Numbered from the stretch's first letter, positions 4,212 through 63,222 are shown. The stretch is DNA of 64,000 nt from an uncultured Sandaracinaceae bacterium (GCA_964502175.1 CAZCVE010000014.1:24969-88968); one strand, 5' to 3'. The notes: generated from the sequence alone by a model not told the origin. Numbers and translations are program-made.

Positions 4212-5402
4212 TTGACCGCGTGCGGGCACTTCGCGAGCATCGCAGGCATGGGGTCCGCTCCGAAGACGTTCGTCGCCCGGTGCTTGCCTGTTCGCGCCGC
4301 CTCGCTCGCCTCACTCCTCGTCGCAACCACCGACGGGTGTGCGCTGACCACGGTGCCGTCGAGCGACGCAGGGCCCGTCGAGGCCGGCGCCATGCACGAC
4401 GCACCGCGAGCCGCGGATGCCGCCCTGAGCGACGCCGCGCTCATCGCCTCTGACGCGCACACCGCCTCTGACGCGATCGTGCAGCCCGTCGACACCTCGA
4501 CTGCGCCGGACGCCGACGTGCCGCCGGAGGACTTGAGACGAGGGCATTTCTCGCCGACGGATGTCTTTCTCGCCGGCACGCTGGGATCGGGCGCCTGCTA
4601 CCTCGACGCCATCGCCGATCCCAGGGCTCCGAGCGTCGCTGTGGTCGGGTTCGACTGCTACTTCGACGAAACGTCGGCGATGATCGCGCCCGACGGAACT
4701 CTCCTCTACGTCAACACGTTCGAGGATGTGCTCCGTGAGTTTCACTGCGACGACTGCCCGGGCTTCGAACCAACAGACACATACCCCAGCGACGTGCTGG
4801 CCAACGACACGATCCGTCCCACGCCGCCGTGCGATCCGGAGACTAACCGGCTGACGGCATTTCGCATCGCCCCGGACGGAGAGGTCCTCCACTCGTGCGG
4901 CGGCGTCTGGTACGACGACACCGGCGCCGAAGTTGCCCGGGTGCTCGACATCGTCGCGGTGAGCCACGGCGGCCTCGTCCTGGGTTTCGACGAGGTCCCA
5001 GGGAGGGACGCTCTGGCACTGCTCGACCGCGGCACAGGCGCGCAGACCGCGGTCGCAGGGGTTCCAGACTGCACACTCGCGGCGGTCCGCTCCGAGCCGA
5101 CTGCTGGCTTCTGGCTCGCGTTCGAGTGTGCGGGCACCGACGAACGATGGTCGATCGGCCCTGACGGGACGGCCCGGCGGGACGGAGCATTTCCCGCCTA
5201 CCCAGCCGGCTACCGCGGTAGCGGGCAAGCTGAGCTGGCAGGAGACGGTTCGCTCTGGACGTTCGCCGGCGGCCCGGGTTCCTTCGAGGATGCGATCGTC
5301 AGACGAACGATCGCAGGCGCCAGCGAGCTCATCTACACGGAAGCGATGGAGCCCGCACCTGCGGTCGAGATACACATCTCCGACCTCGTCACGGGCCCTT
5401 GA
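4212..5402 (+). CDS. hypothetical lipoprotein
   Basis: Signal peptide plus lipobox (LLVATTDGCA). Coherent ORF converging on the dynamin gene. No recognisable catalytic motif. Confidence 0.5.
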   Translation: MTACGHFASIAGMGSAPKTFVARCLPVRAASLASLLVATTDGCALTTVPSSDAGPVEAGAMHDAPRAADAALSDAALIASDAHTASDAIVQPVDTSTAPDADVPPEDLRRGHFSPTDVFLAGTLGSGACYLDAIADPRAPSVAVVGFDCYFDETSAMIAPDGTLLYVNTFEDVLREFHCDDCPGFEPTDTYPSDVLANDTIRPTPPCDPETNRLTAFRIAPDGEVLHSCGGVWYDDTGAEVARVLDIVAVSHGGLVLGFDEVPGRDALALLDRGTGAQTAVAGVPDCTLAAVRSEPTAGFWLAFECAGTDERWSIGPDGTARRDGAFPAYPAGYRGSGQAELAGDGSLWTFAGGPGSFEDAIVRRTIAGASELIYTEAMEPAPAVEIHISDLVTGP

Positions 5403-5423
5403 TCAGCCTTCGCCGTTTCTCGT

Positions 5424-7244
5424 TCAGTTGGGCGCAGCGCCCGAGCCGTTGGCCCAGAGCGACGTGCGGAGGGCACCCATCTCCTGCTCGACGATGCCGA
5501 GGCGCGAGAGCGCCATGCCCGTCTCCTCGCGCACGCGACCGACCTCGGTGTCGCCGCGCTGCTGCGCGACCTTCGCGTGGCGCACGACCTCGGCCATCGA
5601 CTGGGTGAGCTCTTCGCTCGCGTTCTTCACGAAGTCGACGAGCTTGTCGCCGAACTCGTCGATCTGCGCCTCGAACGCGCTCGCCAGATCCGCGGCGGCC
5701 TTCTCCACGGCCTGCGGTGCCTCTTCCATCGCGCGCTTCTTCAGGTCGCGATCCGCGCGCTCGCGGAACACGTAGGCGAGCACCGGCGCCGCGAGCGCCA
5801 TCGCGCCGCCGACGAAGATGTTCGACACCGCCATCACCGTGAGGCCGAACGCGCCGAGCGCGATCACGCCCACGTCGTACGCGAGCGTCGAGACCTGGAG
5901 ATCGACCTTGGGCGCACCCGGGAAGGCCTCCGCGATCTTCTCGCCCTTCGCGCGCGCCTCTTCGCTCACGAACGCGATGGCTTCCTCGGCCACGCGCTCG
6001 AGGCGCTTCGCGAGCTCGAGGCCCTGACGGTCCGCGAAGTTCCTGAAGCGCTCTTCCATGAAGTTCGGGAGGTAGCGCTTGAGGTCGTCGGCCTTGCTCG
6101 ACTCGATCTCCGCGGGCAGCGAGGCCGAGAAGCGCTTGCCGAACTCCTCGCACTCCTTGCGCACCAGCGCCTTGATGCCTGCGAGCGACTCGCGGATCTT
6201 CTGCTCGCGTCGCGCGTGAGAGTCGCGCGTGCTCGACAGATCCTGCTCGAGCGTCGCGAGGCGCCTCTCGAGCTCGTCGTGATCGAGCAAGAGCGCCTGC
6301 TTCTGCACGTCGATGCCGCGGCGCAGCGTGGTCGCCGTGCGCAGGCCCTCGTCGAGGGCGTTGTCGAGGAGCACGCGGCCGCGATCCTCTTCGAGGAACT
6401 TCACGAGGTCGCGCTCGAGCGCGCCGATGCCCGACGCCTCGCGGTCACCCGCCAAGGCCTTCTCGGCGCTCACCGCGTACACGCGCGGCTCGGCGACGAG
6501 CTTCGCGAGCTGCGTCTTGGCGTACGAGAGCGCCTGCTGCTTCTCGTCGTCGTCGAGGAGATCGATCTTGTTGATGACGAACAGCACCTTGTCGCGCGAC
6601 TGGCTGAGCAGCTTGTTCGCGAGGAACGTGCGCTCGCTCTCCTTGAGGATCTGGCCCGCGTCGAGGAGGAACAGGATCGCGTCGGCCTTGGGCACGTAGC
6701 TGTACGTGATCTCGGCGCGCGTCGAGTTGAGGTCGTTCACGCCGGGCGTGTCGACGAGCACCACGCCGCCGCCGGTCGACTCTCCTTCGCCGTTGCCCAT
6801 GTTGAGGAGCGCGCTCGGGTAGTGCACCTCGAGGTAGCGCACCGAGTCGGTCGTCGCGCTGCCGCCCACCACGTAGCTGCCCACCTCGTCGAACGGCACG
6901 ATCTTCGTCTCGCCGCTCTCCATGATCGCCTTGGCGCCGCGCACGCCGTGGACCACTTGGTGGATCACGGCCGTCGTCGGCGTGACGCCCATCGGCAGCA
7001 CGGGCGCGCCGAGCAGCGCGTTCACGAACGTGGTCTTGCCGTGGTTGAACTCGCCGAGCACCACGAGGTGGAACTTCTCTTCCTCGAGACGCGGGATGCG
7101 GTCGCCGCGGAGCTTCTTCGCCAGCGTCGCAGCGCCGGTGTCCTCGGAGAGGATCGCGACCTCCCGCAGCAGATCGAGGACCTTGCCGCGCTTGGCCTGG
7201 TAGTCCGCCGCGCCAAGGCGATGAGACTCGGGAGCTTCCGTCAT
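5424..7244 (-). CDS. bacterial dynamin-like GTPase (BDLP/DynA/LeoA-like)
   Basis: G1 P-loop GEFNHGKTT, G3 DTPGVND and G4 INKID motifs. Long helical stalk and a hydrophobic paddle segment (VIALGAFGLTVMAVSNIFVGGAMALAAPVLAYVF). True start MTEAPESH at the complement of 7242-7244; the ORF table's upstream extension to 7901 overlaps the M48 gene out of frame. ATGA overlap with the upstream M48 gene. Confidence 0.85.
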   Translation of the reverse strand: MTEAPESHRLGAADYQAKRGKVLDLLREVAILSEDTGAATLAKKLRGDRIPRLEEEKFHLVVLGEFNHGKTTFVNALLGAPVLPMGVTPTTAVIHQVVHGVRGAKAIMESGETKIVPFDEVGSYVVGGSATTDSVRYLEVHYPSALLNMGNGEGESTGGGVVLVDTPGVNDLNSTRAEITYSYVPKADAILFLLDAGQILKESERTFLANKLLSQSRDKVLFVINKIDLLDDDEKQQALSYAKTQLAKLVAEPRVYAVSAEKALAGDREASGIGALERDLVKFLEEDRGRVLLDNALDEGLRTATTLRRGIDVQKQALLLDHDELERRLATLEQDLSSTRDSHARREQKIRESLAGIKALVRKECEEFGKRFSASLPAEIESSKADDLKRYLPNFMEERFRNFADRQGLELAKRLERVAEEAIAFVSEEARAKGEKIAEAFPGAPKVDLQVSTLAYDVGVIALGAFGLTVMAVSNIFVGGAMALAAPVLAYVFRERADRDLKKRAMEEAPQAVEKAAADLASAFEAQIDEFGDKLVDFVKNASEELTQSMAEVVRHAKVAQQRGDTEVGRVREETGMALSRLGIVEQEMGALRTSLWANGSGAAPN

Positions 7245-8155
7245 GTCGAGGATCCTGCCTTTCCGTCCGTGCTGGTGCTGCCGTCCATGCTGATGATCGC
7301 GCTCGTCTTCTCGTCGACCGCCTCGATGCTCGTGCCGCCGCTCTGTCCGATCGCCGAGCGGTAGAGCTCGCTCTCCGCAAAGGCCTGGAGGGCCTTGATG
7401 CGCTTGGGCAGGTACGGGTGGCTCGAGAAGGCCTCCATGTAGCGGCCCACCGAGCTCTTCGCCTCGTCGTGCTGCGCGAGGAACTCCGTCATGTCGACCT
7501 CGTCCGAGAGGCGCTTGCTGCCCACCGCGAGCTTGATGAACGAGCGCGAGGCCGAGTCGAGATCCTGCGAGCAGAGGAGGCCCGCGCGGTCGCACGTGAT
7601 CTCCGCGCGCCGGTACCACGCGTTGAGCGCGACCACCGCGGGCAGGATCAGCGGCCCGATGAACATCTCGGCCATGCGCTGGAGGAGCACGAGCGCGGTG
7701 CTGTAGACGACGTGCTTGTTCTGGATGTGCCCCGTCTCGTGGCCGATCACGAAGAGGAGCTCCTTCTCGGAGAACGCGTCGACGAGCGCGGAGTGGAGCA
7801 CGATGAACGAGTCGTCCTCGGTGCCGAACGTGAAGGCGTTCATCACCGGGCTGTTCGCCACGTACACCTGCGGCACCGGCACCTGCAGCGTGGCCGCGCA
7901 CTGCGCGACGAGCTTGTAGAGCGAGGGGAACTGCTTCTCGGTGACCTTCACGGTCGAGCCGAGCAGCGTGCCGCGCAGGAACTCCTTGTTCATGCGCACG
8001 ACGGTGGCCGCCGCGATCTCGACGGGCCGGATCTTCGAGAACCCGCGCAGCATGGCGAGGTCGGCGGAGTACGCGTACCGCGCGTCGTCACGCCGGCCGT
8101 AGCCACCGCTCTGTTGTCGCTCGACGAACTCCCCGAAGCTGATCGTGTCGCTCAT
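7241..8155 (-). CDS. M48 family zinc metallopeptidase (HtpX-like, apparently soluble)
   Basis: HETGH (HExxH) zinc motif at LLFVIGHETGHIQNKH. Start MSDTISFGEF at the complement of 8153-8155. No obvious TM helices. Stop overlaps the dynamin start (tcat at 7241-7244 on the plus strand). Confidence 0.8.
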   Translation of the reverse strand: MSDTISFGEFVERQQSGGYGRRDDARYAYSADLAMLRGFSKIRPVEIAAATVVRMNKEFLRGTLLGSTVKVTEKQFPSLYKLVAQCAATLQVPVPQVYVANSPVMNAFTFGTEDDSFIVLHSALVDAFSEKELLFVIGHETGHIQNKHVVYSTALVLLQRMAEMFIGPLILPAVVALNAWYRRAEITCDRAGLLCSQDLDSASRSFIKLAVGSKRLSDEVDMTEFLAQHDEAKSSVGRYMEAFSSHPYLPKRIKALQAFAESELYRSAIGQSGGTSIEAVDEKTSAIISMDGSTSTDGKAGSST

Positions 8156-8341
8156 GTGGTGGCTCTCTTGGGTGGAGGCGCGCCCGGCAGACCGAGAGTA
8201 GCGCGTGCGGCTTGGAACGTACGACGAACGCAGGTCATTTCGCGCCCGGGAGGCCCGAAACGGCAAGAATGCTTCTGCGTGCGTCTGACGAGTGCGTGAA
8301 GAACCGTGTGCGGGAGCGGTCACCGTGCGGTCTTGCCGCGA

Positions 8342-8748
8342 TCAGCCTCGGGGATCGACGAGGCGCACGCCGGCCGCCCCGAAGTCGTGGGGGTTGAGCG
8401 TGGCGATCGGGATCTCGTGGACGAGCGCCGTCGTGGCGATGAGGCTGTCCTTCACAGGCATCGCGCGACCCTTGGCGCGCAGGCTCGCGATGAGCTCGGC
8501 CCACCGGAGCCCGCAGCGCGCGTCCCACGTGAGGCACGGCAACGTCGCGACCCCCGCGTCGAACCATGCCTCGAGCCGCGCGCGTCGAGCGGAGCGCCGC
8601 AAGAGCAGGATTCCGTAGCGGATCTCACCGAGGATGACGGGATCGACCACGATGTCGGCCTCGTGCGTCTCGAGCCAACGGACGACGCGCGGATCGGGGG
8701 TGGGCTTGGTGGCCTCGGACAGGACGTTCGCGTCGACGAGGATCGTCA
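8342..8748 (-). CDS. vapC: PIN-domain toxin VapC
   Basis: VTILVDANVLSE N-terminal PIN signature with acidic residues. About 135 aa. Starts (GTG) 13 nt after the vapB stop. Confidence 0.8.
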
Positions 8749-8760
8749 CGATGCTCTCGC

Positions 8761-8988
8761 TCAGAGGTCGTCGGTCGACTCGGAGTCGATGGCCACGAAG
8801 TAGCCCTTCTCCGGACACGCTCGGAGCCAGGCGACGATGCCGGCGCCGCGTCGTTCCACGCGCGTCAGCCGGTACTCGCCTCTCTCGACGCGCACGACCT
8901 CGAACTCGTCGCCCGGCACGATGCCGTCTTGTTCGCGAAGCGTCGCGGGCAGGATGACCTGCCCCTTCGTCGAGAGGGTGGTGCGCAT
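8761..8988 (-). CDS. vapB: AbrB/SpoVT-type antitoxin VapB
   Basis: 75 aa; N-terminal swapped-hairpin motif (LSTKGQVILPATLRE); immediately upstream of vapC. Confidence 0.75.
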   Translation of the reverse strand: MRTTLSTKGQVILPATLREQDGIVPGDEFEVVRVERGEYRLTRVERRGAGIVAWLRACPEKGYFVAIDSESTDDL

Positions 8989-9065
8989 GGACGTAAGATG
9001 GCGTCTTACCTACGCAGGGGCAATGCGCTCCAACGGCTCGTCACTGCGTGCTATGCGTGGCCACC

Positions 9066-10112
9066 ATGCCGGGCACGACGATCATCGGGTCGGGGCGCTT
9101 CTTTCCGGGCACCCCAGTCACGAACGACCAGCTCTCGAAGGTGATGGACACCAACGACGAGTGGATCCGTCCGCGATCGGGCATCGCGCAGCGGCACTAC
9201 GTGGCCGAAGGGCAGGGCGTGTCGGATCTCGCGGTGCCCGCCGCGCAGCTGGCGCTCGAGTCCGCGAACGTCGATCGCGCGGAGATCGACTACATCATCT
9301 TCGCGACGATGACGCCCGAGCACGTGTTCCCGGGCTCGGGCGCGCTCTTCGGCGCGAAGCTCGGCATCCCCGGCGTGCCCGCGCTCGACATCCGGCAGCA
9401 GTGCGCCGCGATGCCGTTCAGCATGCAGCTCGCGGATGGCCTGATCGGCTCGGGCGCCGCGCGCACCGTGATGATCGTGGGCGCCGAGGCGCACGCGGGC
9501 TTCATGCCGTACGCGTGGGACGTGCTGCTCGGCACGAGCGATCGCGACGTCACGCCCGAAGAGTACGAGTTCGCGACCAAGCACCGCGGCACGGCCGTGC
9601 TCTTCGGTGACGGCGCGGGCGCGCTCGTCGTGCGCAAGAGCAAGCACGAGGGACACGGCTTCCTCGGCGCGGCGAACCACTCCGATGGCCGCATCGCCGA
9701 CCAGATCTGGATCCCCGGCGGCATGTTCACCAAGCGTCACTACTGGGACGCCGTCGCCGACTCGCACCTGCCGACCATGAAGGGCAAGGACCTCTTCAAG
9801 AGCGCGGTGACGTTGCTTCCGAGGGCCGTGCGCGAGATCTGCGAGAAGGCCGGCGTGACGCTCGACCAGATCGACTGGTTCATCGCGCACCAGGCCAACG
9901 ACCGCATCAACGCGTCGGTGCGTCAGTCGCTCGGCGTGCCCGAAGAGCGCGTGCCGTCGAACATCGCCAACTACGGCAACACGTCCGCGGGCACGATCCC
10001 GATCCTCGTCGACGAGATGCGCCGCGACGGCCGCCTGAAGGAAGGCCAGCTCCTCTGCTTCCTCGCGCTCGGCGCCGGCCTCAATTGGGGCGCGGCGCTC
10101 ATGAGGCTCTGA
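9066..10112 (+). CDS. fabH: 3-oxoacyl-ACP synthase III (KAS III)
   Basis: FabH signatures throughout: active-site Cys region (DIRQQCAAMPFSMQLAD), AHQAN and NYGNTSAG motifs. ATG at 9066 (MPGTTIIGSG). Confidence 0.85.
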   Translation: MPGTTIIGSGRFFPGTPVTNDQLSKVMDTNDEWIRPRSGIAQRHYVAEGQGVSDLAVPAAQLALESANVDRAEIDYIIFATMTPEHVFPGSGALFGAKLGIPGVPALDIRQQCAAMPFSMQLADGLIGSGAARTVMIVGAEAHAGFMPYAWDVLLGTSDRDVTPEEYEFATKHRGTAVLFGDGAGALVVRKSKHEGHGFLGAANHSDGRIADQIWIPGGMFTKRHYWDAVADSHLPTMKGKDLFKSAVTLLPRAVREICEKAGVTLDQIDWFIAHQANDRINASVRQSLGVPEERVPSNIANYGNTSAGTIPILVDEMRRDGRLKEGQLLCFLALGAGLNWGAALMRL

Positions 10113-10113
10113 C

Positions 10114-10971
10114 ATGCGGGGGCCGATGCGCTGCGCCCACACCTCTGCGTTCGTCGCCGCGCTCGGGCTCGCCGCGGGTTGCCCCAACGTCGAGGCGCCC
10201 GACGCTGCGACGGACCTCCGCGATGCATGGTCGCTCGACGGGTCCAGCCTCGTGGATGCGACACACCTCGATCCGACCGACCCCGATGCGCCGACGTCGC
10301 TCGTCGACGCGTCGGAGACGGACGCCCCGATCGATCCGGCACTCGACTCGGGTTCGATCGACGCAGCCTCGGGCGACGCCGTAGACGCCGAGGCCGGTGA
10401 TGCGCGCGATCCGCACGACGCACCGCTGGCCGCGGATGCCCCGTGCCCGCCTCGGCTCGGTGACTGCGACGGCCTGGCATCGAACGGCTGCGAGACCCCC
10501 CTCACCACGAGCGCCGACTGTGGCGGATGCGGCGTGCCGTGTGCGCCGTCGGGCGCTGTCGGCGATTGCTCGACGGGCACCTGCCAGGTCGTGGCCTGTC
10601 TTCGAGCCGACTTCGGTGACTGTGATGGTCTCGCCTCCAACGGCTGCGAGACCAGCCTGCGCACGACGGGAGACTGCGCTGCTTGTGGCGTGCCTTGCAC
10701 GGTCCCGGGCGGCGCCGCGACCTGCGCGAGCGGATTCTGCTCGCCGACGGGCTGCGCCGTCGGGCTCGCCAATTGTGATGCGGCCCCTGGCTGCGAGCAG
10801 TCGACGAACACCTCGACGCACTGCGGTGACTGCAACGTGGCGTGTGCCCCGAGCCACGCCGCGGCGTCCTGCGCGACGGGCACGTGCCAGATCACGCGCT
10901 GCGACGATGGCTGGCTCGACTGCGACGGCCGCGCGAGCAACGGCTGCGAGCGGGAGAGCGCTGGCTGCTGA
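10114..10971 (+). CDS. secreted Cys-rich repeat lipoprotein (repeated DCDGLASNGCET and CGxCxxxC units)
   Basis: Lipobox AALGLAAGC. Low-complexity acidic linker followed by repeated Cys-rich modules. Starts 2 nt after the fabH stop. Confidence 0.65.
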   Translation: MRGPMRCAHTSAFVAALGLAAGCPNVEAPDAATDLRDAWSLDGSSLVDATHLDPTDPDAPTSLVDASETDAPIDPALDSGSIDAASGDAVDAEAGDARDPHDAPLAADAPCPPRLGDCDGLASNGCETPLTTSADCGGCGVPCAPSGAVGDCSTGTCQVVACLRADFGDCDGLASNGCETSLRTTGDCAACGVPCTVPGGAATCASGFCSPTGCAVGLANCDAAPGCEQSTNTSTHCGDCNVACAPSHAAASCATGTCQITRCDDGWLDCDGRASNGCERESAGC

Positions 10972-15820: not shown

Positions 15821-17140
15821 TCAGGCGAGCGCGCGGAGCGCTTCGCCGAGACGCGGGAGCGCGTCCTGGATCTCGCGCATCGAGACGGCGCCCACGCTGA
15901 GTCGGAACCATCCGGAGTCGCCCGGGTAGCCGAACGCCTGGAACGGCACGATGCCGATGCCGGCCGCGTCGAGCACGTAGCGGCGCACCTCTTCGTTCGT
16001 CGTGAGCGTCTGTCCCGCGGGCGTCTTCTTGCCGAACGGAGCGAGCTGCACCGTGAGGTAGATCGCGCCCTCGGGAGAGAGCGAGTCGACCGGCAGGCCC
16101 TTGCTCTTGAGCGCCTGGAAGCCCTCGTGGAGCGCGCTCAAGCGTCCGACGACGCCGGCCTTGAGACCATCGACGTACGTGCGACACACGCCCGGCTCGT
16201 CGAGCATCTTCGCCGTCGCGATCTGCTCCGCGCGCGGCGCCCACGCGCCGACGTGTCCGAGGATCGCGCTCATGCGATCGATCACGTCGGTCGGTCCGAT
16301 CGCCCAGCCCACGCGCACGCCGGTCGCGGCGAACGCCTTCGAGATGCCGTCGACGAAGATCGTGTAGCGCGCCATCTCCGGCACGAGCTGCGGAGGCGAG
16401 ACGTGCTCGGTGCCCGCGGCCGTGAGCATCCAGTAGATCTGGTCATACATGAGGTAGACGGGCTTCTCGCCGCGCGCGCGACGCTGCTCGTTCTCGCGCA
16501 CGATCGCCTCCGAGACGCCGAGCACCATGTCGCGCGACATCGCCGTGCCCGTGGGGTTGAGCGGCGTGTTGAGGCACACGAGGCGCGCGCCCGGCAGCGC
16601 CTTCTCGATCATCTCGCGCGTCGGCAAGAAGCGTGTCTCGGGGCCGCACTGCACGGTGACGCTCTTGCTGCCCGTCATGGTGACGTAGTGGTTGTTGTTC
16701 CAGCTCGGCACCGGATAGACGACCGTGTCGCCCGGATCGACGACCGCGCGGTAGATGCCGTAGATGACGGGGCGCGCGCCCGACGCGATGAGGATCGAGT
16801 CGAGCGGGTACGAGAGGCCGAGCTCGCGCTGGTAGAAGCGCTGCACGGCGTCGCGCAGCTGCGGCATGCCGTTCGAGGGCGGGTAGTTCGTCTCGTGCGC
16901 GTCGTACGCGGCGACGATGTGCGCGCGCAGCGACTCGGGGATCGCGAACTGCTTCGGATCGAAGTCGCCCACGGTGAGGTTACAGACGGGCTGACCCTTC
17001 GCGACGAGCGCGCGGATCTCACCAGCGATCTTCAGGATCTCGGAGCCGACGATCTTGCCGGCCATCGCGGACACGCGCGGACTGGTCGAGTCGTGAGGAC
17101 GGACGAACGACGAGAGATCGACGGGCGTGCTGCTGCTCAT
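15821..17140 (-). CDS. PLP-dependent aminotransferase (class I/II)
   Basis: Aminotransferase fold I residues; the SKAFAATGVRVGW lysine region is typical of aspartate/aromatic aminotransferases. Confidence 0.85.
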   Translation of the reverse strand: MSSSTPVDLSSFVRPHDSTSPRVSAMAGKIVGSEILKIAGEIRALVAKGQPVCNLTVGDFDPKQFAIPESLRAHIVAAYDAHETNYPPSNGMPQLRDAVQRFYQRELGLSYPLDSILIASGARPVIYGIYRAVVDPGDTVVYPVPSWNNNHYVTMTGSKSVTVQCGPETRFLPTREMIEKALPGARLVCLNTPLNPTGTAMSRDMVLGVSEAIVRENEQRRARGEKPVYLMYDQIYWMLTAAGTEHVSPPQLVPEMARYTIFVDGISKAFAATGVRVGWAIGPTDVIDRMSAILGHVGAWAPRAEQIATAKMLDEPGVCRTYVDGLKAGVVGRLSALHEGFQALKSKGLPVDSLSPEGAIYLTVQLAPFGKKTPAGQTLTTNEEVRRYVLDAAGIGIVPFQAFGYPGDSGWFRLSVGAVSMREIQDALPRLGEALRALA

Positions 17141-17215
17141 GGGGCGCGAGAATGGCACGCGAGCGAGGGCTCGCTAGCGCCGATCCGCACGCGCGCAGGG
17201 GACCGGCGAGGTAAC

Positions 17216-18139
17216 TCACGCTCCGCGCGCGTCATCACGCGGCGCGCGCGTCACGAGCACACCCGCGAGCAGCACGAGCGCCCCACCTGCGAGCGCCCAC
17301 AGCGAGAGGCGCTCACCGAACGCGACCCACCCGACGACGCACGCGACCACGGGCTCGACGAACGCGAGGATGGCCGCGCGCGCGCTGCCGATCACCGCGC
17401 TGCCGCGGAGGAACGCGAGCCCCGCGAGCGCACCGGGCACGAGCCCCGCGACGAGCAAGTACGGAACGTCGCGTCCTTCGATGTCGAGCAGCTCGCTGCC
17501 CGCGAGAGGAAGGAGGAGCAAGAGCGCGCCGAGCGCGTGCACACCGAGCGTCGTCGCGGTGCCGATCTCGAGCGCGAGCTTGCGACCGAGGAAGACGTTG
17601 CCCGCGTACGCGATCGCGCTGGTGAGGCCGAGGCCCGCGCCGAGGAGCACGTCACCTCCTAGCGCCCCGTCGCGCCACGGCTCGAGCAAGAGCGTCACGC
17701 CCGCGAGCGCGAGCAGCGCGGAGAGGCCCGCGCCCGGCACGCGAACACCGTCGACGCGCGGTGCGAGCAGCGCGACGAGCACCGGCGCGAGATCGTGCGT
17801 GAGCACGGCGACCGCGACGGTCGTGATCGTCATCGCGTGAAAGAACGTCGCCGCGTTGAGCGCGTCGAAGAACGTGAACGCCGCGAGCATGCCGACCACG
17901 CGCGGCGTCCACACGATCGGAGTCTTGCGCTCCGTGCGCTCGCGCGAGATCAGCGGCAGCGAGCTCAGCGCCATGCACGCGAAGACCACGGGCGCGGTCG
18001 TTCGGCCCGAGAGCTCCGTGGGCCTGAACCACAGGCTCCACGTCCCCCACATCACGGCCGCGAAGACCACGAGGATCGTGCCCGTGACTCGGCTGTTGCG
18101 TCCGTCGTCGCTCGCGCCTGGGACCACCGCTTCGCTCAC
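17216..18139 (-). CDS. DMT-superfamily (EamA-like) transporter
   Basis: 10-TM hydrophobic profile with duplicated EamA halves. GTGA overlap with the lipB stop. Confidence 0.75.
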   Translation of the reverse strand: MSEAVVPGASDDGRNSRVTGTILVVFAAVMWGTWSLWFRPTELSGRTTAPVVFACMALSSLPLISRERTERKTPIVWTPRVVGMLAAFTFFDALNAATFFHAMTITTVAVAVLTHDLAPVLVALLAPRVDGVRVPGAGLSALLALAGVTLLLEPWRDGALGGDVLLGAGLGLTSAIAYAGNVFLGRKLALEIGTATTLGVHALGALLLLLPLAGSELLDIEGRDVPYLLVAGLVPGALAGLAFLRGSAVIGSARAAILAFVEPVVACVVGWVAFGERLSLWALAGGALVLLAGVLVTRAPRDDARGA

Positions 18140-22916: not shown

Positions 22917-24143
22917 GTGACCGTGTGGGCGAAGGCCAGACCTTGGTGGATCGCGGTGCTCGCAGGCTACGGGCTCTGCGTGAGCGCTCCGTTCATGTTT
23001 CTGTTCGGCGTTCCGGTGCTTTGGTTGCCGTGGCTCCTTCGCCGCATCTCCGACCATCGAGAGCCCGTCACCGAGGGATTTCGTGAGGTGGTCACGCGCG
23101 CTGCGCTCGTTCTGCCTGCGTGGGCGTTCCATCTCGCTTCGAGCCATGTCGCGCTGGTCTTCGCACGACAGGCGGGCCTGGCACCGTCGGGCCTCATTCC
23201 ATTCGCAGTGGGCGTCCTGGCCGGGCCTTTCGTGCTTCCGTGGTTCGGGGCCACCGGCTTGATGAAGTTGCCCATCGCTGACGGGGTCTCGCGGTCGTTC
23301 GATGCCTGGGACACGCGCGGCGCTCGCGACTGGATGCTGCACGGTCTGCTCGTCGGGCTCCTTCTCTCCTGGCCCTATGGTGTCTTCTCGCTCGGCGACG
23401 GCGTCGCCCTGCCATCGGGCATGCTGTCGCCCGGCGTGGAAGTCCTGCTCCTTCTTCTCGGAGTGTCCTGTGTGCCAGCGGCCGTGGGTATCGCCCTACG
23501 GTACGCAGCGGTGTCGACCCGGACCCCGCCCCGCGAAGTCATGGGGTCCGGTACGGGCACTCTCGTGGCTGCGCTCGGCGTCCTCGCCTCGGCAGCCTGG
23601 GTCGTCACCCTCGCGATCCTGTCGACCCCACGACTCTCGCGGCCAGCGCCGATATTGGCGTCCACGCTCGTCACCGTGATGCTCGCGCCGTTGGCGGCGT
23701 GGATCGTGTTGGCGATCATCACAGTCCTGCGTCGGCCGAAGGGGAGGCCGTTGGAACGCAGACCGGCGATCCTGCAAGGGACCCTCGTGGTTCGCGGCAT
23801 GACGGTTCTCGCGCGCGAGACCGTGGTGCTCCAGCTGGAGGATGGCTCTTCCATCGCGCTCGCCGAGGGCGAGTCGGTTGCCGCGGGCTACTTCCTCGTC
23901 GACACGCTGCCGTCGGGTTCATCCATCGAGCTGTGGGTCGAACCGGGCATGTCCGAGGTCGCGTTCCGCAGCGCGACGGCGCGCAGCGCCATCGTTGGAC
24001 TGCATCCACCGAGCCCGCGAGTCGCGACGCCTGTCTCTCGCGTTCCCTCCCCCTGGTTGCCCGCGCAGCACGCCGTCATGCTGATCACCTGCGCGTGGAT
24101 CTGGTCGCAAGTCTGGTTGTTCGAGAACATCGGAGCTCGGTGA
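22917..24143 (+). CDS. hypothetical polytopic membrane protein
   Basis: Multiple hydrophobic helices; no motif. Its 3' end overlaps by about 58 nt the convergent minus-strand gene ending at 24085. Confidence 0.45.
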   Translation: MTVWAKARPWWIAVLAGYGLCVSAPFMFLFGVPVLWLPWLLRRISDHREPVTEGFREVVTRAALVLPAWAFHLASSHVALVFARQAGLAPSGLIPFAVGVLAGPFVLPWFGATGLMKLPIADGVSRSFDAWDTRGARDWMLHGLLVGLLLSWPYGVFSLGDGVALPSGMLSPGVEVLLLLLGVSCVPAAVGIALRYAAVSTRTPPREVMGSGTGTLVAALGVLASAAWVVTLAILSTPRLSRPAPILASTLVTVMLAPLAAWIVLAIITVLRRPKGRPLERRPAILQGTLVVRGMTVLARETVVLQLEDGSSIALAEGESVAAGYFLVDTLPSGSSIELWVEPGMSEVAFRSATARSAIVGLHPPSPRVATPVSRVPSPWLPAQHAVMLITCAWIWSQVWLFENIGAR

Positions 24144-30899: not shown

Positions 30900-33101
30900 T
30901 CAGAGCCCCAGCTTCTTCGCCTGGGTGAGCAGCGCCTCGAGGCGCGACTTGGTGCTCGCGTCGCCCGCGTCGGCCGAGAGCTTCGCGAGGAACGCGCTCA
31001 CGCTGAGGTTCTTCAGCGCTTCGCTGTCGAGCTTGGGGTTCTTGAGGATCTCGGTGAGATCCTCGGGGAGGCTGCGGTTGTTCTGGAGGTAGTCCGCGAG
31101 CACCGTCTTGATGGTCTGGCTGTTGTCGACGGTGGCGTCGATCGCCTGACCCATCGTGAGGGCGCTGGCGAAGCGCTCGAAGAACTGACCGTCGCCGCCG
31201 ACGATCTGGATCTTCGCGTTGCCCATCGCGGTGGCCATGACCTCGGCCTGGGCCTTCGCGATCTCCTTCTTCACCTCGATGCCAGCGAGCTCCACGGCCT
31301 TCTCCTTGTCGAGGCGGAGGCGGAACTCTTCGTGCTCGCGGCCGACGCCGTCGAGCGCCTTCATGGCGTTGGCCTTCTGCGCGAGACCCGCCGCCTCGGC
31401 TTCGAGCTTCTGCTGGATCGCGCCGGCCTCGGCCTCGCCGCGCTTGGCGATGGCGAGCGCCTCGGCCTCTCGCACGCGGGCGAGCGCGAGACCCTTCTGC
31501 TCCTCGCCCTGCACCTCGATGGTCGTGCGCTCGCGGATCACGGCGGCCTCGGCGAGGCCTGCCTTGCCCTGCGCCTCGCCGCGCTTCTCGAGGACCTTGG
31601 CCTCGGCCATGCCCTTGTTCTCGAGGCCGGTCGCCTCGGCCGTCATCTTCTTCTCGATGACGAGCGCCTCGGCCATGCCCTGCTTCTCGATCGCGGCGGC
31701 CTGCGCCTCGCGAACGCGCACCTCGGCGAGGCCCGCGGCCGCGTGCTCGGCCTGGACGCCCTCGGCGACGCGCATCTTCGCGCGCGCCTGCTTGTCGGCG
31801 GTCTCGAGGTCCGCGTCGGCGATGGTCACGCGCCGCTTGGCTTCGTGACGCGCCACGGCCTCGTCGGCTTCGGCCTTCTTCACGATGCGCACGGCGGCCT
31901 CCTCGGCCGACGCGCTCGCCGTGATGACGACCGCTTCCTTCTGGCGCTTGGCCTCCGCGACGAGGCGGAGATCCTTGATGCGCTCCTCTTCCTCCGCGAC
32001 GGTCTTGTCGACCGCGATGCGCGCGCGCACCACGTCGGCGATGTCCTTCTTCTGGACCTCGACTTCCTTCTCCTTCGCGATCGAGCCGAGGCTGACCTCG
32101 CGCTCGCGCACGATCTGCTCGAGGGCTCGCGCCTTCTCGACGCGCTCGGTCTCGACGGCGATCTCGCGCTCGCGGCCCTTCTGGGCGATCGCGGCGCCGC
32201 GCTCCTTGTTCTGCTGCGCGACGAGGATCTCCTCTTCGTACTTGGCGCGGAGGACCTGCGTCTTCTTCGCCTCTTCGTCCGAGATGCGCTGCGCCTCTTG
32301 CTGCTCGCGGGCCTGCGACGACGTGATCTCCTTGTTGGTCTTGGCCTCGACCTCGGCGCGGCGCTGGTTGAACGCGAACATCGCCTCGTCGCCCTTGAGC
32401 GTCTGGCTGCCGATGTCCATGCGCTCCTTCTGACGGAGCTCGTTCGTCATCACGTTCTGCACGGTCGTGATGTCGGTGATCTTCTTGATGCCCTGCGCGT
32501 CGAGGATGTTCTGCGCGTCCATGAGCTCGAGCGGCGTCTGCTCGAGGTAGTCGATGGCCACGTCGTCGAGGACGAAGCCGTTGAGGTCACGGCCGATGAC
32601 CTCCTTGATCTGATCGCGGAAGACCTCGCGCTTCTTGTAGAGGTCCTCGAAGTCGAGCTGCTTGCCGACGGTCTTGAGCGCTTCCGAGAACTTGGCGGTG
32701 AAGAGGTGCTCGATCGTCTTCTGGTCGGAGGCGCGTGCGGCGCCGATGGACTGCGCGACCTTGAGCACGTCCTCCACCGTCTTGTTCACGCGGACGAAGA
32801 ACGTGACCTTGATGTCCGCGCGGATGTTGTCGGCGCAGATGAGGCCTTCCTTCCCTCGGCGATCGATCTCGATGGTCTTCACCGAGATGTCCATGATCTC
32901 GGCGCGGTTGATGATGGGCCACACCGTGAACCCGGTGAACGTCACGTGCGGCTCGCCGCCTCCGAGCCCGGCGCCCGTCTTGATCAGGGCCCGACCCTGA
33001 TCGACCAAGCGGTAGAAGCGCGCGAGCATCGCGAGGAAGCCCAAGACGAGCACCACTGCGGCTAGGACGACGCCCACGATCATCAGCTGGTTCGACGACA
33101 T
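30900..33101 (-). CDS. flotillin-like protein (SPFH/band-7 domain with long EA-rich coiled coil)
   Basis: N-terminal TM helix and SPFH domain (ISVKTIEIDRRGKEGLICADNIRADIKVTFFVRV). Long AEA/EAQ repeat helical region typical of flotillins. SD GGGAGGA upstream of ATG. Confidence 0.85.
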   Translation of the reverse strand: MSSNQLMIVGVVLAAVVLVLGFLAMLARFYRLVDQGRALIKTGAGLGGGEPHVTFTGFTVWPIINRAEIMDISVKTIEIDRRGKEGLICADNIRADIKVTFFVRVNKTVEDVLKVAQSIGAARASDQKTIEHLFTAKFSEALKTVGKQLDFEDLYKKREVFRDQIKEVIGRDLNGFVLDDVAIDYLEQTPLELMDAQNILDAQGIKKITDITTVQNVMTNELRQKERMDIGSQTLKGDEAMFAFNQRRAEVEAKTNKEITSSQAREQQEAQRISDEEAKKTQVLRAKYEEEILVAQQNKERGAAIAQKGREREIAVETERVEKARALEQIVREREVSLGSIAKEKEVEVQKKDIADVVRARIAVDKTVAEEEERIKDLRLVAEAKRQKEAVVITASASAEEAAVRIVKKAEADEAVARHEAKRRVTIADADLETADKQARAKMRVAEGVQAEHAAAGLAEVRVREAQAAAIEKQGMAEALVIEKKMTAEATGLENKGMAEAKVLEKRGEAQGKAGLAEAAVIRERTTIEVQGEEQKGLALARVREAEALAIAKRGEAEAGAIQQKLEAEAAGLAQKANAMKALDGVGREHEEFRLRLDKEKAVELAGIEVKKEIAKAQAEVMATAMGNAKIQIVGGDGQFFERFASALTMGQAIDATVDNSQTIKTVLADYLQNNRSLPEDLTEILKNPKLDSEALKNLSVSAFLAKLSADAGDASTKSRLEALLTQAKKLGL

Positions 33102-50588: not shown

Positions 50589-52117
50589 GCGAGGCGCGCG
50601 CGACCGAAGGCGAGGGCATCGAGACGTACAAGCGTCGCGCGCTGCTCGGCGCGATCGCGCTCGCGCTGCGCACGGGGCTCGCGCAGCTGATCATCCTCGG
50701 CGGCACCGTCGTGCTCGCGCGCTACCTGCGGCCTGCGGAGTTCGGCGCGTTCGCGATGGTGCAGTTCGTCCTCACGGTGCTGACGATCTTCGGCGACGCG
50801 GGCCTCGGTGGGGCGCTGATCCAGAAGAAGACGACGCCCACCGAGGCCGAGCTCTCGAGCGTGTTCTTCGCGCAGATGGGCCTCTCGGGCGCGGTGCTCG
50901 CGGTCGCGTGGGGCCTCGGCGAGCTCTTGCCGTACGTGTGGACCGATCTGCCCGAGGGCGCGCCGTGGATCGTGCGCGCGCTCGCGCTGAACTTCGTGCT
51001 CACGTCGGCGCGCGTGGTCCCCACGGTGCTCATGGAGCGAGAGCTGCTGTTCGTGCGCATCTCGATCCTCGACACGGTGAACTCCATCGCGTTCTACCTG
51101 GCGGCCTCGGCGCTCGCGCTCGCGGGCTTCGGCGTGTGGGCGCTCGTGCTCGGCGTGCTCGCGCAGGGTGCGCTCGGCTTCGTCACCGCGCTCGCGCTGC
51201 GGCCGTGGCGTCCGAGGCTCTCGTTCGATCGCGAGGCGCTCCGTCCGCTGCTGCGCTTCGGCGTGCCGTTCCAGGCGCGCAGCATCTTGGCGCTCGCGAC
51301 GCGCGCGGCGATCCCGGTGGTGGGCGGCACGATGCTCGGCAGCGAGCCCGTGGGGTTCCTCAACTGGGCGCTCGAGACGGGCTTCTTCGCGCTGACGTTC
51401 GTCGACATCGTCGCGCGCGTGAGCTTCCCGCTCTACAGCCGCTTGCAGAGCGCGCCCGACGAGCTCGCGCGCGCGCTCGAGCGCAACCTCAGGCTCTCGG
51501 TGGTGCTCACGTTCTTCCTCACGACGATGTTCGTCAGCCTCGCGCCCGCGCTGACCGAGATCATCTACTCGGCGCAGTGGCTGCCGGCCGTGCAGGTGCT
51601 GCGTGTGTACGCGCTCGCGGTCGCGCTCGGGATGTTGATCAACGTGCTCGCGCCCGCGTTCGACGCGAAGGGTCAGCCGCGCATCGTGCTCGCGCAGCTC
51701 GTGGTGGTGGCGTCGTTCGTGTGGCTGCTCGCGCCGCTCGGCGCGTGGCTCGAGGGCACGCTGGGGTTCGCGATCGGCTACGGCGGCGCGATCTGGATCG
51801 GCGGCATGTTCCTCATCTGGGCGAGCCACCGCGAGCTCGCGCAGCTTCCCTTGCTGCGCGTGCTCGTCGCGCCGCTGCTCGCGGGGATCCTCGTCGGCGC
51901 TGGAGGTCTCGCGCTCGTGCCGTACGTGGAGAGCGCGCCGGTGCTGGTGCTCGCCGTGCTCGTCGAGGGGCTCGCGTTCCTCGGGCTCGTCATGCTCTTC
52001 GACGCGCGGACGCGCGCCGTGCTGCTCGAGGCGATGCGCAAGAAGCCCGCTGCCGAGAGCGCGGAGAGCTCAGCGGGGTCCGCGGATCAGCTCGCGGAGA
52101 CGCGCGACGACGCGTGA
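50585..52117 (+). CDS. polysaccharide flippase (Wzx/MOP superfamily)
   Basis: ATGA overlap with the glycosyltransferase stop. 12 to 14 TM helices; LLRFGVPF motif. Confidence 0.8.
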   Translation: MSEARATEGEGIETYKRRALLGAIALALRTGLAQLIILGGTVVLARYLRPAEFGAFAMVQFVLTVLTIFGDAGLGGALIQKKTTPTEAELSSVFFAQMGLSGAVLAVAWGLGELLPYVWTDLPEGAPWIVRALALNFVLTSARVVPTVLMERELLFVRISILDTVNSIAFYLAASALALAGFGVWALVLGVLAQGALGFVTALALRPWRPRLSFDREALRPLLRFGVPFQARSILALATRAAIPVVGGTMLGSEPVGFLNWALETGFFALTFVDIVARVSFPLYSRLQSAPDELARALERNLRLSVVLTFFLTTMFVSLAPALTEIIYSAQWLPAVQVLRVYALAVALGMLINVLAPAFDAKGQPRIVLAQLVVVASFVWLLAPLGAWLEGTLGFAIGYGGAIWIGGMFLIWASHRELAQLPLLRVLVAPLLAGILVGAGGLALVPYVESAPVLVLAVLVEGLAFLGLVMLFDARTRAVLLEAMRKKPAAESAESSAGSADQLAETRDDA

Positions 52118-61857: not shown

Positions 61858-63222
61858 GTGATTCGCGAGGCGGTTCGGCGATCGATCGGCGTGGTGCGCG
61901 TGCACCCGTGGGTGATGCTCGCGATCGGCTCGGCGCTCGTGCTCGCGATCGCCTCGACGTTCACGGGCCTCGGCTTCGGCCTAGCCCCGTGGTTCGCGTG
62001 CGAGGTGTTCGCGCTGGCGCTCGGTGCGTCCGGCGTTCCCATCCAGCCGCGCGGGGCGGCGTGGAGCAAGGCCGCGCTCTTCGTGCTCACCGTGGGCGTG
62101 CTCTTCGGGTCGGTCGTCGTGCTCGCCGCGCTCGTGTTCGGCCCCGACCTCGCGATGGTCGATCGGTCCACCGTGATGCCGTGGGACCAATCGCTCCTCC
62201 GCATCTTCGGCATCGTGGCGATCTCGCTCGTCGCGCTCGCGTACGTGCTCCCGTTCGTGCACGTGCCCGGCATCCTCATCGAGCGCGGCGGCGCGTTCGG
62301 TACGGCGGTGCTCGAGAGCATGCTGCTCGTGCGGCGCGTGGGCGTGCTCGCGACCTTCCGCATCGTGCTCGTCGCCGCGAGCTTCGCGCTCTTTCCGGCC
62401 GTCATCGCCGCGATGATCGCCGCGCGCACGCTCGACCGCGCCTCGACGCCGATCGGCTTGCTCGCGAGCGCGCCGTTCCTCCTCTTGTCGCTGCCCATCG
62501 GGCTCGGCGTCGTCGCGCAGGGCTACATGCTCGCGCGTCATCGCTTGCCCGCGCGACACTTGGTCCATCGCACGCACGTGGGCTGGCCCACCTTGGTCCT
62601 CCTCGCGACGGGCGTGCTCGCGCCCGTCGGAGGTCTCGTGCTCTTGCTCGTCGCGTGCGCGCTCCCTGCGCCGCTCCTTCGTGGCGCCGTGCCCCCGAGC
62701 GCGACGCGCGTGCTCGAGTCGGGGCTCGGTGAGCGCGTGGTCCCCGGCTCGACGCTGTCGGTGGTGCTCGCGCCCGATCACGCAGAAGTGCACACGGCGT
62801 TCGACGACGCGGTGGCCTCGCTCTCGACGCGTCGCAGCCGCAGCGGTCAGCGTCCGCTCGAGCGCGTGCGCGCGTACACGCTCGGGGACGTGCTCGCGAT
62901 CGAGCTCGTCGCGGCTGACGACGCGGTGCAGGGCCACGCGCTCTTCACCGCCGCGGGTGTGCGCCTCGACGACACCGTCCATCGCGCGCTCGACGAGCGC
63001 ATGGGCGTGCGCCGCGCGCTCGTGTTCGGTCCCACGTTCCTCGTCGTCGCGCTGCTGGTGCTCGCTGCGCTCGGTCCGCTCGCCGAGACGCGCAGCGAGG
63101 CGCGCGCGACGCCCGATCAGATCGCGAGCGCGCAGACTCGAGCGTTTCGGCTGGGTCTCGTGCTCGTGCCGTTCTGGGGCGCGATCGTCGCCCTCGGCGC
63201 GCTCGCCGTCGCGGGCTGGTGA
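61858..63222 (+). CDS. hypothetical polytopic membrane protein
   Basis: About 8 predicted TM helices; no motif. Confidence 0.45.
   Translation: MIREAVRRSIGVVRVHPWVMLAIGSALVLAIASTFTGLGFGLAPWFACEVFALALGASGVPIQPRGAAWSKAALFVLTVGVLFGSVVVLAALVFGPDLAMVDRSTVMPWDQSLLRIFGIVAISLVALAYVLPFVHVPGILIERGGAFGTAVLESMLLVRRVGVLATFRIVLVAASFALFPAVIAAMIAARTLDRASTPIGLLASAPFLLLSLPIGLGVVAQGYMLARHRLPARHLVHRTHVGWPTLVLLATGVLAPVGGLVLLLVACALPAPLLRGAVPPSATRVLESGLGERVVPGSTLSVVLAPDHAEVHTAFDDAVASLSTRRSRSGQRPLERVRAYTLGDVLAIELVAADDAVQGHALFTAAGVRLDDTVHRALDERMGVRRALVFGPTFLVVALLVLAALGPLAETRSEARATPDQIASAQTRAFRLGLVLVPFWGAIVALGALAVAGW

Follow-up and report, generated by a model that had tools for sequence, protein, structure and literature searches.

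Genes of the M48-DLP Locus

A 64,000-nucleotide stretch of DNA from an uncultured Sandaracinaceae bacterium (GCA_964502175.1, CAZCVE010000014.1:24969-88968), referred to here as the window, encodes on its minus strand an M48 family zinc metallopeptidase of 304 aa (positions 7241-8155, ATG at 8155 and TGA at 7241) followed by a dynamin-like GTPase (dynamin-like protein, DLP) of 606 aa (5424-7244). The stop codon (TGA) of the peptidase gene and the start codon (ATG) of the DLP gene share an ATGA overlap at 7241-7244 of the minus strand, read directly in the sequence as ctcgacATGAcggaa. The initial annotation of this DNA had described the two genes, their overlap and a vapB-vapC pair upstream on the same strand, and had raised the possibility of a variant of the Eleos phage-defense system; all four minus-strand genes and the overlap are confirmed. 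We find that the locus is a bacterial DLP operon with a protease partner, a unit of two genes whose order M48-DLP is conserved and passed on vertically in Myxococcota of the Polyangia type; at least one other phylum has related operons. The two protein families are familiar ones; their conserved partnership, fusions and variants are undescribed in the literature searched, in which no work linking an M48 peptidase with a bacterial dynamin was found.

The peptidase matches Peptidase_M48 (PF01435) at 104 bits against a cutoff of 20.3, and has the HExxH motif, the downstream glutamate zinc ligand and the M48 fold by which family members are recognized. Read from the sequence, the zinc-binding and catalytic motif is HETGH (aa 139-143, positions 7727-7741, minus strand), the third-ligand Glu is E185 within RRAEITCDRAG, and an HPYLPKR motif occupies aa 246-252. 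HExxH is retained in 75 of 75 Polyangia orthologues and in 79 of 80 metagenome relatives from the scans described below, the third-ligand Glu and the HP..R motif show little or no variation in the window's M48 clade, and the whole family has a conserved C-terminal helix whose Asp (D281) never varies. Since the catalytic residues do not vary within the clade of the window M48, catalysis probably matters there.

With HtpX (M48B) the window peptidase shares the M48 fold, HExxH at the same position and the third-ligand Glu; its best NCBIfam matches are HtpX equivalogs (over aa 68-166), and the HtpX domain 3cqb is a structural match. It differs from HtpX in scoring 61.3 bits against a cutoff of 355 with the best HtpX model, matched over aa 68-160 only and short of an equivalog-level match, and in lacking, of the four transmembrane (TM) helices, the two N-terminal ones. 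No N-terminal hydrophobic helix is seen in any homologue, the KD19 hydropathy maximum over the first 70 aa being 1.2, and the absence of such a segment from the window protein and 75 orthologues bears out the earlier view that this M48 is devoid of the TM helices of canonical four-TM HtpX. A standard membrane HtpX with a mis-called start was also considered and is excluded, as the longer upstream extension of the open reading frame (GTG 8323) is hydrophilic and the homologues align from ATG 8155. The window M48 is predicted to be cytoplasmic or peripheral, without N-terminal TM helices. What it does have is a single short, moderately hydrophobic helical hairpin of ~28 aa (aa 153-180, KD19 peak 1.68) between HExxH and the Glu ligand, in what we take, from HtpX topology, to be the place of TM3/TM4.

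The DLP matches Dynamin_N (PF00350) at 93.8 bits against a cutoff of 27 (E = 1.6e-26). Its GTPase domain (aa ~54-265, positions 6450-7085, minus strand; delimited by Pfam and motif reading) has the motifs that define the dynamin superfamily intact, with G1 (GEFNHGKT, consensus GxxxxGK[ST]) at aa 64, G3 (DTPG, consensus DxxG) at 165 and G4 (NKID, consensus [NT]KxD) at 225, and the P-loop is kept in 68 of 70 DLPs paired with a Polyangia M48. A hydrophobic hairpin of 44 residues (aa 451-494, positions 5763-5894, minus strand), detected by KD19 with a peak of 2.13, is predicted to form a membrane-inserting paddle or TM hairpin and is present in all orthologues (lowest peak 1.62). It aligns weakly, and not significantly on its own, near residues 557-652 of BDLP, presumably the location of the paddle. 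The neck and trunk expected of a dynamin are provided by long helices in an AlphaFold2 (AF2) model of a 39%-identical fusion homologue, which aligns with BDLP across 684-690 columns.

The best matches of the DLP among Protein Data Bank sequences are Nostoc BDLP (2j68, 2.7e-15), Cj-DLP1 (5owv) and IniA (6j72). A Foldseek search with the fusion homologue model ranks BDLP (1.9e-21), IniA (1.3e-16), Cj-DLP1/2 and SynDLP ahead of Fzo1 and the mitofusins, with LeoA at rank 30 and OPA1 at rank 36. The DLP therefore belongs to the BDLP/IniA/mitofusin class and is not LeoA-like, contrary to the LeoA/Eleos-type relationship suggested earlier. With BDLP of Nostoc punctiforme, IniA of Mycobacterium and Cj-DLP1-2 it shares a GTPase domain with G1-G4, a helical neck and trunk, and a hydrophobic membrane-inserting tip; it differs in sequence (structural alignments, for which the 39%-identical fusion homologue was used, show only 17-19% identity) and in company. 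For most bacterial DLPs the partner described is a second DLP (PMC6104087), whereas the constant partner here is an M48 peptidase, with no second DLP in Polyangia.

Conservation and Inheritance of the Pair

An alignment of the M48 protein was scanned against one genome per GTDB species, giving 546 relatives, of which the best 80 loci were examined. All 80 are from Polyangia, with representatives in Sandaracinaceae, Polyangiaceae, Sorangium, Polyangium, Labilithrix and Byssovorax. With L001 and L082 included, a DLP follows M48 on the same strand in 80 of 82 Polyangia loci, and the other two end within 240 nt past M48. A second scan, of metagenomes, started from a distant, lysine-rich M48 that is 39% identical to the window M48 and returned 80 loci at 34-75% identity to this seed; a DLP lies directly 3' of M48 in 69 of them, and 10 of the remaining 11 have no more than 223 nt downstream. 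Counted over metagenome loci with ~175 nt or more of sequence past M48, the pairing holds in 69 of 70. Two metagenome loci have 25% GC, and one of these two (L086) is from a metagenome-assembled genome (MAG) labeled Cyanobacteriota (MEK7433923-5) and encodes M48-DLP-DLP. Three of the DLPs paired with M48 across both scans, two in the Polyangia set and one in the metagenome set, are GTPase-less remnants.

The distance between the M48 stop and the DLP start varies over 75 orthologous loci: the genes overlap in 36 (by the -4 ATGA arrangement in 18), are 0-20 nt apart in 13, and are separated by up to 236 nt in the rest, so that the distance is at most 20 nt in 49 of 75. Translational coupling is therefore frequent but not universal, whereas adjacency of M48 and DLP is.

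The sequence identity of M48 co-varies with that of its DLP (r = 0.89) and with that of FabH (r = 0.96), which fits vertical co-inheritance of the pair. The window has ~70% GC across its 64 kb, the closest relatives of both M48 and DLP are from Sandaracinaceae and other Polyangia (Myxococcota), and the neighbors of the pair in the window encode FabH, a SpoU rRNA methylase and cytochromes c (Pfam assignments); the gene downstream of the DLP is convergent and does not encode a DLP. As judged from these sequence relationships, the pair is vertically inherited among housekeeping genes with a core-genome-like distribution. Its adjacency also survives a change of all other neighbors, in Polyangiaceae, in the Cyanobacteriota-labeled MAG and in the triad operons described below. 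Clustering of the flanks revealed no conserved third gene, yielding only lineage-specific neighbors (FabH, an APH-like kinase, an MglA-like GTPase, Bcp) and spurious open reading frames of high GC. Lipid genes recur near the module, namely FabH in Sandaracinaceae and LPG_synthase_TM and PlsY in L166/L167.

Among the lineage-specific neighbors, the APH-family kinase-like gene is encoded on the same strand, less than 500 nt upstream, in many Polyangiaceae loci (L082:6681-7751 and ~16 loci of this family) and also neighbors one of the fusions (P0243). In 14 loci the MglA-like small GTPase is encoded less than 500 nt downstream (e.g., L044:3291-4232). Neither was found in the window. The closest relative of the window (L002, CBDEVG010000045.1; 93-96% protein identity and an unchanged fabH/M48/DLP synteny) bears the deposited name 'Amaricoccus sp.', which denotes an alphaproteobacterium. 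Since all other close relatives are Sandaracinaceae, it is probably a mis-binned or mislabeled MAG contig.

Fusions, Mini-DLPs and Loss of the DLP

In four proteins of 888-906 aa (P0243, P0391, P0392 and P0393) M48 and DLP are fused colinearly, a sense codon (F, A or T) standing for the M48 stop just before the start Met of the DLP. P0391-P0393 are just 52-54% identical to P0243, and this mutual divergence makes a sequencing artifact unlikely. The AF2 model of P0243 (pLDDT 82.9, pTM 0.65) has a continuous helix (residues 283-327) across the junction, in which the C-terminal helix of M48 runs into the first helix of the DLP. Fusion further implies that the M48 domain resides in the same compartment as the GTPase domain, the cytoplasm. 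The pair had been proposed to be an obligate two-gene unit, a proposal that was to fall if the pairing were not conserved in related genomes; the near-universal same-strand adjacency, the natural fusions and the common overlap or near-overlap of stop and start all speak for it, and the pairing is strongly conserved.

A single locus illustrates the opposite course. In L172:6001-6867, which has Sandaracinaceae-type synteny (fabH divergent upstream, PSD/HXXSHH genes downstream), the DLP is lost and M48 reads REFGH instead of HExxH. These variants bear on the simplest account of the adjacency, namely that two unrelated housekeeping genes happen to adjoin in a conserved synteny. Slow rearrangement within one bacterial class could explain such adjacency, and FabH is likewise a stable neighbor in Sandaracinaceae; yet the pair persists where all other neighbors differ, four divergent fusions exist, and the M48 site decayed where the DLP was lost, all of which makes mere synteny very unlikely. 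The protease emerges as a constant partner: it adjoins one DLP clade in ~150 independent loci, four lineages have the two fused, and it decays upon loss of the DLP.

In three divergent lineages M48, with HExxH kept, is followed by a mini-DLP (L024:6548-7594, L025:1365-2039 and L165:5711-6457). The mini-DLPs are 190-250 aa long, have their own start and lack the GTPase domain, matching only the trunk, the hydrophobic hairpin and the following helix of the DLP (HMM positions ~326-527). This suggests that trunk and hydrophobic hairpin are what M48 requires of the DLP.

In a sister operon, found at L093, L094, L117, L121, L126, L149 and L166-L169, the genes run M48-like, DLP, TPR::DLP (~920-990 aa) and rnhB (RNase HII); the LPG_synthase_TM gene of L166/L167 is located just upstream of it.

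A Proposed Membrane-Maintenance Module

We propose, with a probability of roughly 55%, that the two proteins form a module for membrane maintenance or quality control, with the DLP as membrane platform and M48 as a protease lacking an anchor of its own, and not a phage-defense island. They would work together as a single physical unit at the inner membrane, on its cytoplasmic side. There the DLP, being of the BDLP/mitofusin class, would insert its hydrophobic hairpin into the bilayer and serve as platform for the zinc protease, from which the TM anchors usual in HtpX-like M48 enzymes have been lost. By binding or remodeling stressed or curved membrane in a GTP-dependent manner, the DLP would bring the protease to that site or activate it there, and damaged membrane proteins would then be cleared, or a specific membrane-proximal substrate cleaved, by the protease.

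We infer the physical M48-DLP complex, the platform role of the DLP and the physiological role from the natural variants and from what is known of the two families. The fusions argue for a 1:1 physical unit of M48 and DLP in the cytoplasm, and it is the combination of an M48 without anchors of its own, the mini-DLPs and the fusions that leads us to propose the DLP as platform. Quality-control or processing proteolysis close to membranes is the published role of M48 enzymes (papers on HtpX, BepA and OMA1; structures of Ste24 and BlaR1), and bacterial DLPs take part in the surveillance and repair of membranes (PMC8844932, PMC6104087); the proposed mechanism parallels both the quality-control roles of HtpX, BepA and OMA1 and the membrane surveillance by DLPs. 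The pair raises a testable question, whether the dynamin recruits or gates a membrane protease or is itself the substrate.

Several observations weigh against this proposal. The hairpin at aa 153-180 of M48 might by itself anchor the protease to the membrane, and the AF2 model of the fusion, a single chain without inter-domain error, does not demonstrate docking of M48 on the DLP. One metagenome locus (L089) may be a real exception to the pairing, extending 756 nt past M48 without a DLP and ending in repeats. No DLP adjoins the M48 relatives at 31-37% identity that are encoded on replicons of Tsukamurella, Bernardetia and Thermus, and other members of the M48 family are fused to zinc ribbons, kinases or SHOCT; the unpaired distant relatives indicate that the DLP link belongs to one clade of cytoplasmic M48 proteins and not to M48 generally. 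In the Cyanobacteriota-labeled MAG (L086:3978-9521) a zf-CDGSH + TIR-domain gene lies directly upstream of M48, followed by the two tandem DLPs, all on one strand, and this TIR neighbor could hint at a defense context in that lineage, so that a role in defense is conceivable in some lineages. Lastly, the active site of the M48-like protein of the sister operon is degenerate in four loci (NELGH, RECGH, GAFGH) and intact in six, the GAFGH variant being without both the first His and the catalytic Glu, so that proteolysis is not always required for the partnership.

The degenerate proteins are still tightly coupled to DLP genes, as would be expected if M48 were mainly a non-catalytic adaptor or regulatory subunit of the DLP (an assembly factor, GTPase regulator or membrane co-anchor) whose peptidase chemistry is secondary. 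The conserved C-terminal helix with D281, continuous with the first DLP helix in the fusions, would suit such a subunit. We nevertheless regard this explanation as doubtful: in the window's clade the invariance or near-invariance of HExxH, the third-ligand Glu and HP..R argues for selection on catalysis, and the sole degenerate site in this synteny type (L172) is found where the DLP was lost.

The membrane-maintenance proposal must also be weighed against the only well-studied relationship between an M48 peptidase and a dynamin, OMA1-OPA1 in mitochondria, to which the pair connects. The M48 peptidase OMA1 cleaves the dynamin-like GTPase OPA1 at an energy-transducing membrane (PMC2806285), and the window pair, from the same two superfamilies, would likewise be functionally linked at such a membrane. 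By analogy, the bacterial M48 could be a regulator that cleaves its partner DLP, for instance to release or activate it at the membrane. The obligate and sometimes covalent linkage of an M48 to a BDLP/mitofusin-class DLP and the strict retention of HExxH in the pair-type clade would fit such regulation, but catalytically dead M48-like partners stay linked to DLPs in the sister clade, and in the mini-DLP variants the partnership persists although there is no GTPase to regulate. The components differ as well. OMA1 is an integral membrane protein, whereas the window M48 has no N-terminal TM helix and scores best with HtpX/BepA/Ste24 models, and the window DLP resembles BDLP and mitofusin more than OPA1. 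Cleavage of the DLP by its partner is therefore unlikely in our estimation. A broader analogy, that M48-DLP is a prokaryotic counterpart of OMA1-OPA1 combining an M48 that senses membrane stress and a fusion-type dynamin in one regulated machine, in which either the protease processes the dynamin or the dynamin gates the protease, is offered as a speculation with the odds well against it; if true, the partnership of protease and dynamin would be an ancient bacterial invention, found in Myxococcota and the Cyanobacteriota-labeled MAG, and not a eukaryotic one.

Relationship to Eleos and Phage Defense

The other function that might be considered for the pair is that of an anti-phage module, either a variant Eleos or a system resembling DynA, with the DLP delaying lysis or sealing membranes and the protease as effector. 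DynA protects B. subtilis against phage (PMC8844932), the window has a toxin-antitoxin module beside the pair, L086 has a TIR-domain gene upstream of M48, and PADLOC matches the DLP to its LeoA and LeoBC profiles with 80.8 and 73.6 bits (E ~1e-23 and ~1e-21). These profile matches are generic, and they are all that the PADLOC search suggested by the initial annotation produced, with no match for M48, VapB or VapC. Against the NCBIfam LeoA/HP0731 model (NF041922) the DLP scores 40.6 bits where the cutoff is 325, outside that subfamily and in keeping with the distant structural rank of LeoA. The DynA and CrfC models of NCBIfam are likewise far below cutoff; DynA (NF052648), a fused double DLP of ~1,190 aa, gives 110.8 bits against 1600, and the window DLP has one GTPase domain.

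Eleos is defined as LeoA + LeoBC, two dynamin-like genes, and no protease belongs to the described architecture, as had been pointed out for this locus. The window locus has a dynamin-like GTPase in common with Eleos, but a single one, with an M48 partner and a core-genome-like distribution, and no second DLP was found within ~6 kb in the 80 orthologous Polyangia loci. The pair tracks taxonomy and keeps a stable housekeeping synteny, M48 relatives were not found in IMG/VR viral contigs (phage records gave one weak DLP match), and the adjacent VapBC is an insertion in one genome. A phage-defense function therefore appears quite improbable, and the framing of the locus as defense or Eleos-type does not hold. 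Membership in Eleos or another known defense system was rejected on the PADLOC and NCBIfam results, and a phage or plasmid origin on the lack of IMG/VR relatives and on the plasmid-borne M48 relatives being without a DLP neighbor. A generic match to a LeoA profile and a neighboring toxin-antitoxin module should not, in our opinion, prompt an Eleos-type annotation of the pair.

VapBC Cassette and Other Features of the Window

The genes upstream of the M48-DLP pair encode a 75-aa VapB-like antitoxin of the AbrB/MazE fold (8761-8988, minus strand; Pfam MazE_antitoxin E = 2.8e-6, TIGR01439 1.5e-8) and a 135-aa VapC-like PIN-domain toxin (8342-8749, minus strand; Pfam PIN E = 3.1e-9), whose start is most plausibly GTG 8749, 11 nt past the vapB stop. 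A small MazE/AbrB antitoxin gene immediately upstream of a PIN gene with an 11-nt spacer is the arrangement of VapBC type II modules; the NCBIfam VapC equivalogs are below cutoff for the PIN protein (29.5 vs 140 and 23.6 vs 80), so the assignment is at family level only. The pair thus lies directly upstream on the same strand, as annotated, with 186 nt (8156-8341, minus strand) from vapC to M48. Its inclusion in the arrangement, in contrast, finds no support in the comparison of loci: VapB/VapC adjoins the M48-DLP pair in none of the 171 other related loci, and the lone VapC-like match is ~4 kb away in L029. Alignment with L002 and L004 (90-96% protein identity), both without VapBC and with the normal fabH-M48 gap of ~180-260 nt, defines the cassette as a ~740-bp insertion (window 8300-9040) between the fabH start and the conserved M48-proximal region. 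VapBC is accordingly classed from these alignments as an independent mobile cassette specific to this genome and outside the M48-DLP module, to which it is unrelated, and placed between fabH and the M48 promoter region.

The M48-proximal ~110 nt of the spacer are common to close relatives without VapBC, which makes them the likely native promoter/5' region of the M48-DLP operon; only very close relatives share the stretch. A promoter and terminator scan and an Rfam search over 5000-9300 gave no sigma-70 consensus, no terminator and no meaningful Rfam match, and since no terminator is predicted after vapC, transcriptional read-through from vapBC into M48-DLP is possible.

Elsewhere in the window, directly after fabH, a plus-strand gene (10114-10971) encodes a Cys-rich protein of 285 aa in which 'CDGLASNGCE...C..C' units recur; its N-terminus is probably signal/lipobox-like, and Pfam gave no match for the protein. 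A 1-kb profile of the window displays strong local AT-skew excursions (+0.31, and -0.35 to -0.39) at 17001-18000, 23001-24000, 31001-33000, 51001-52000 and 62001-63000, which probably reflect strand-biased or repetitive coding sequence.

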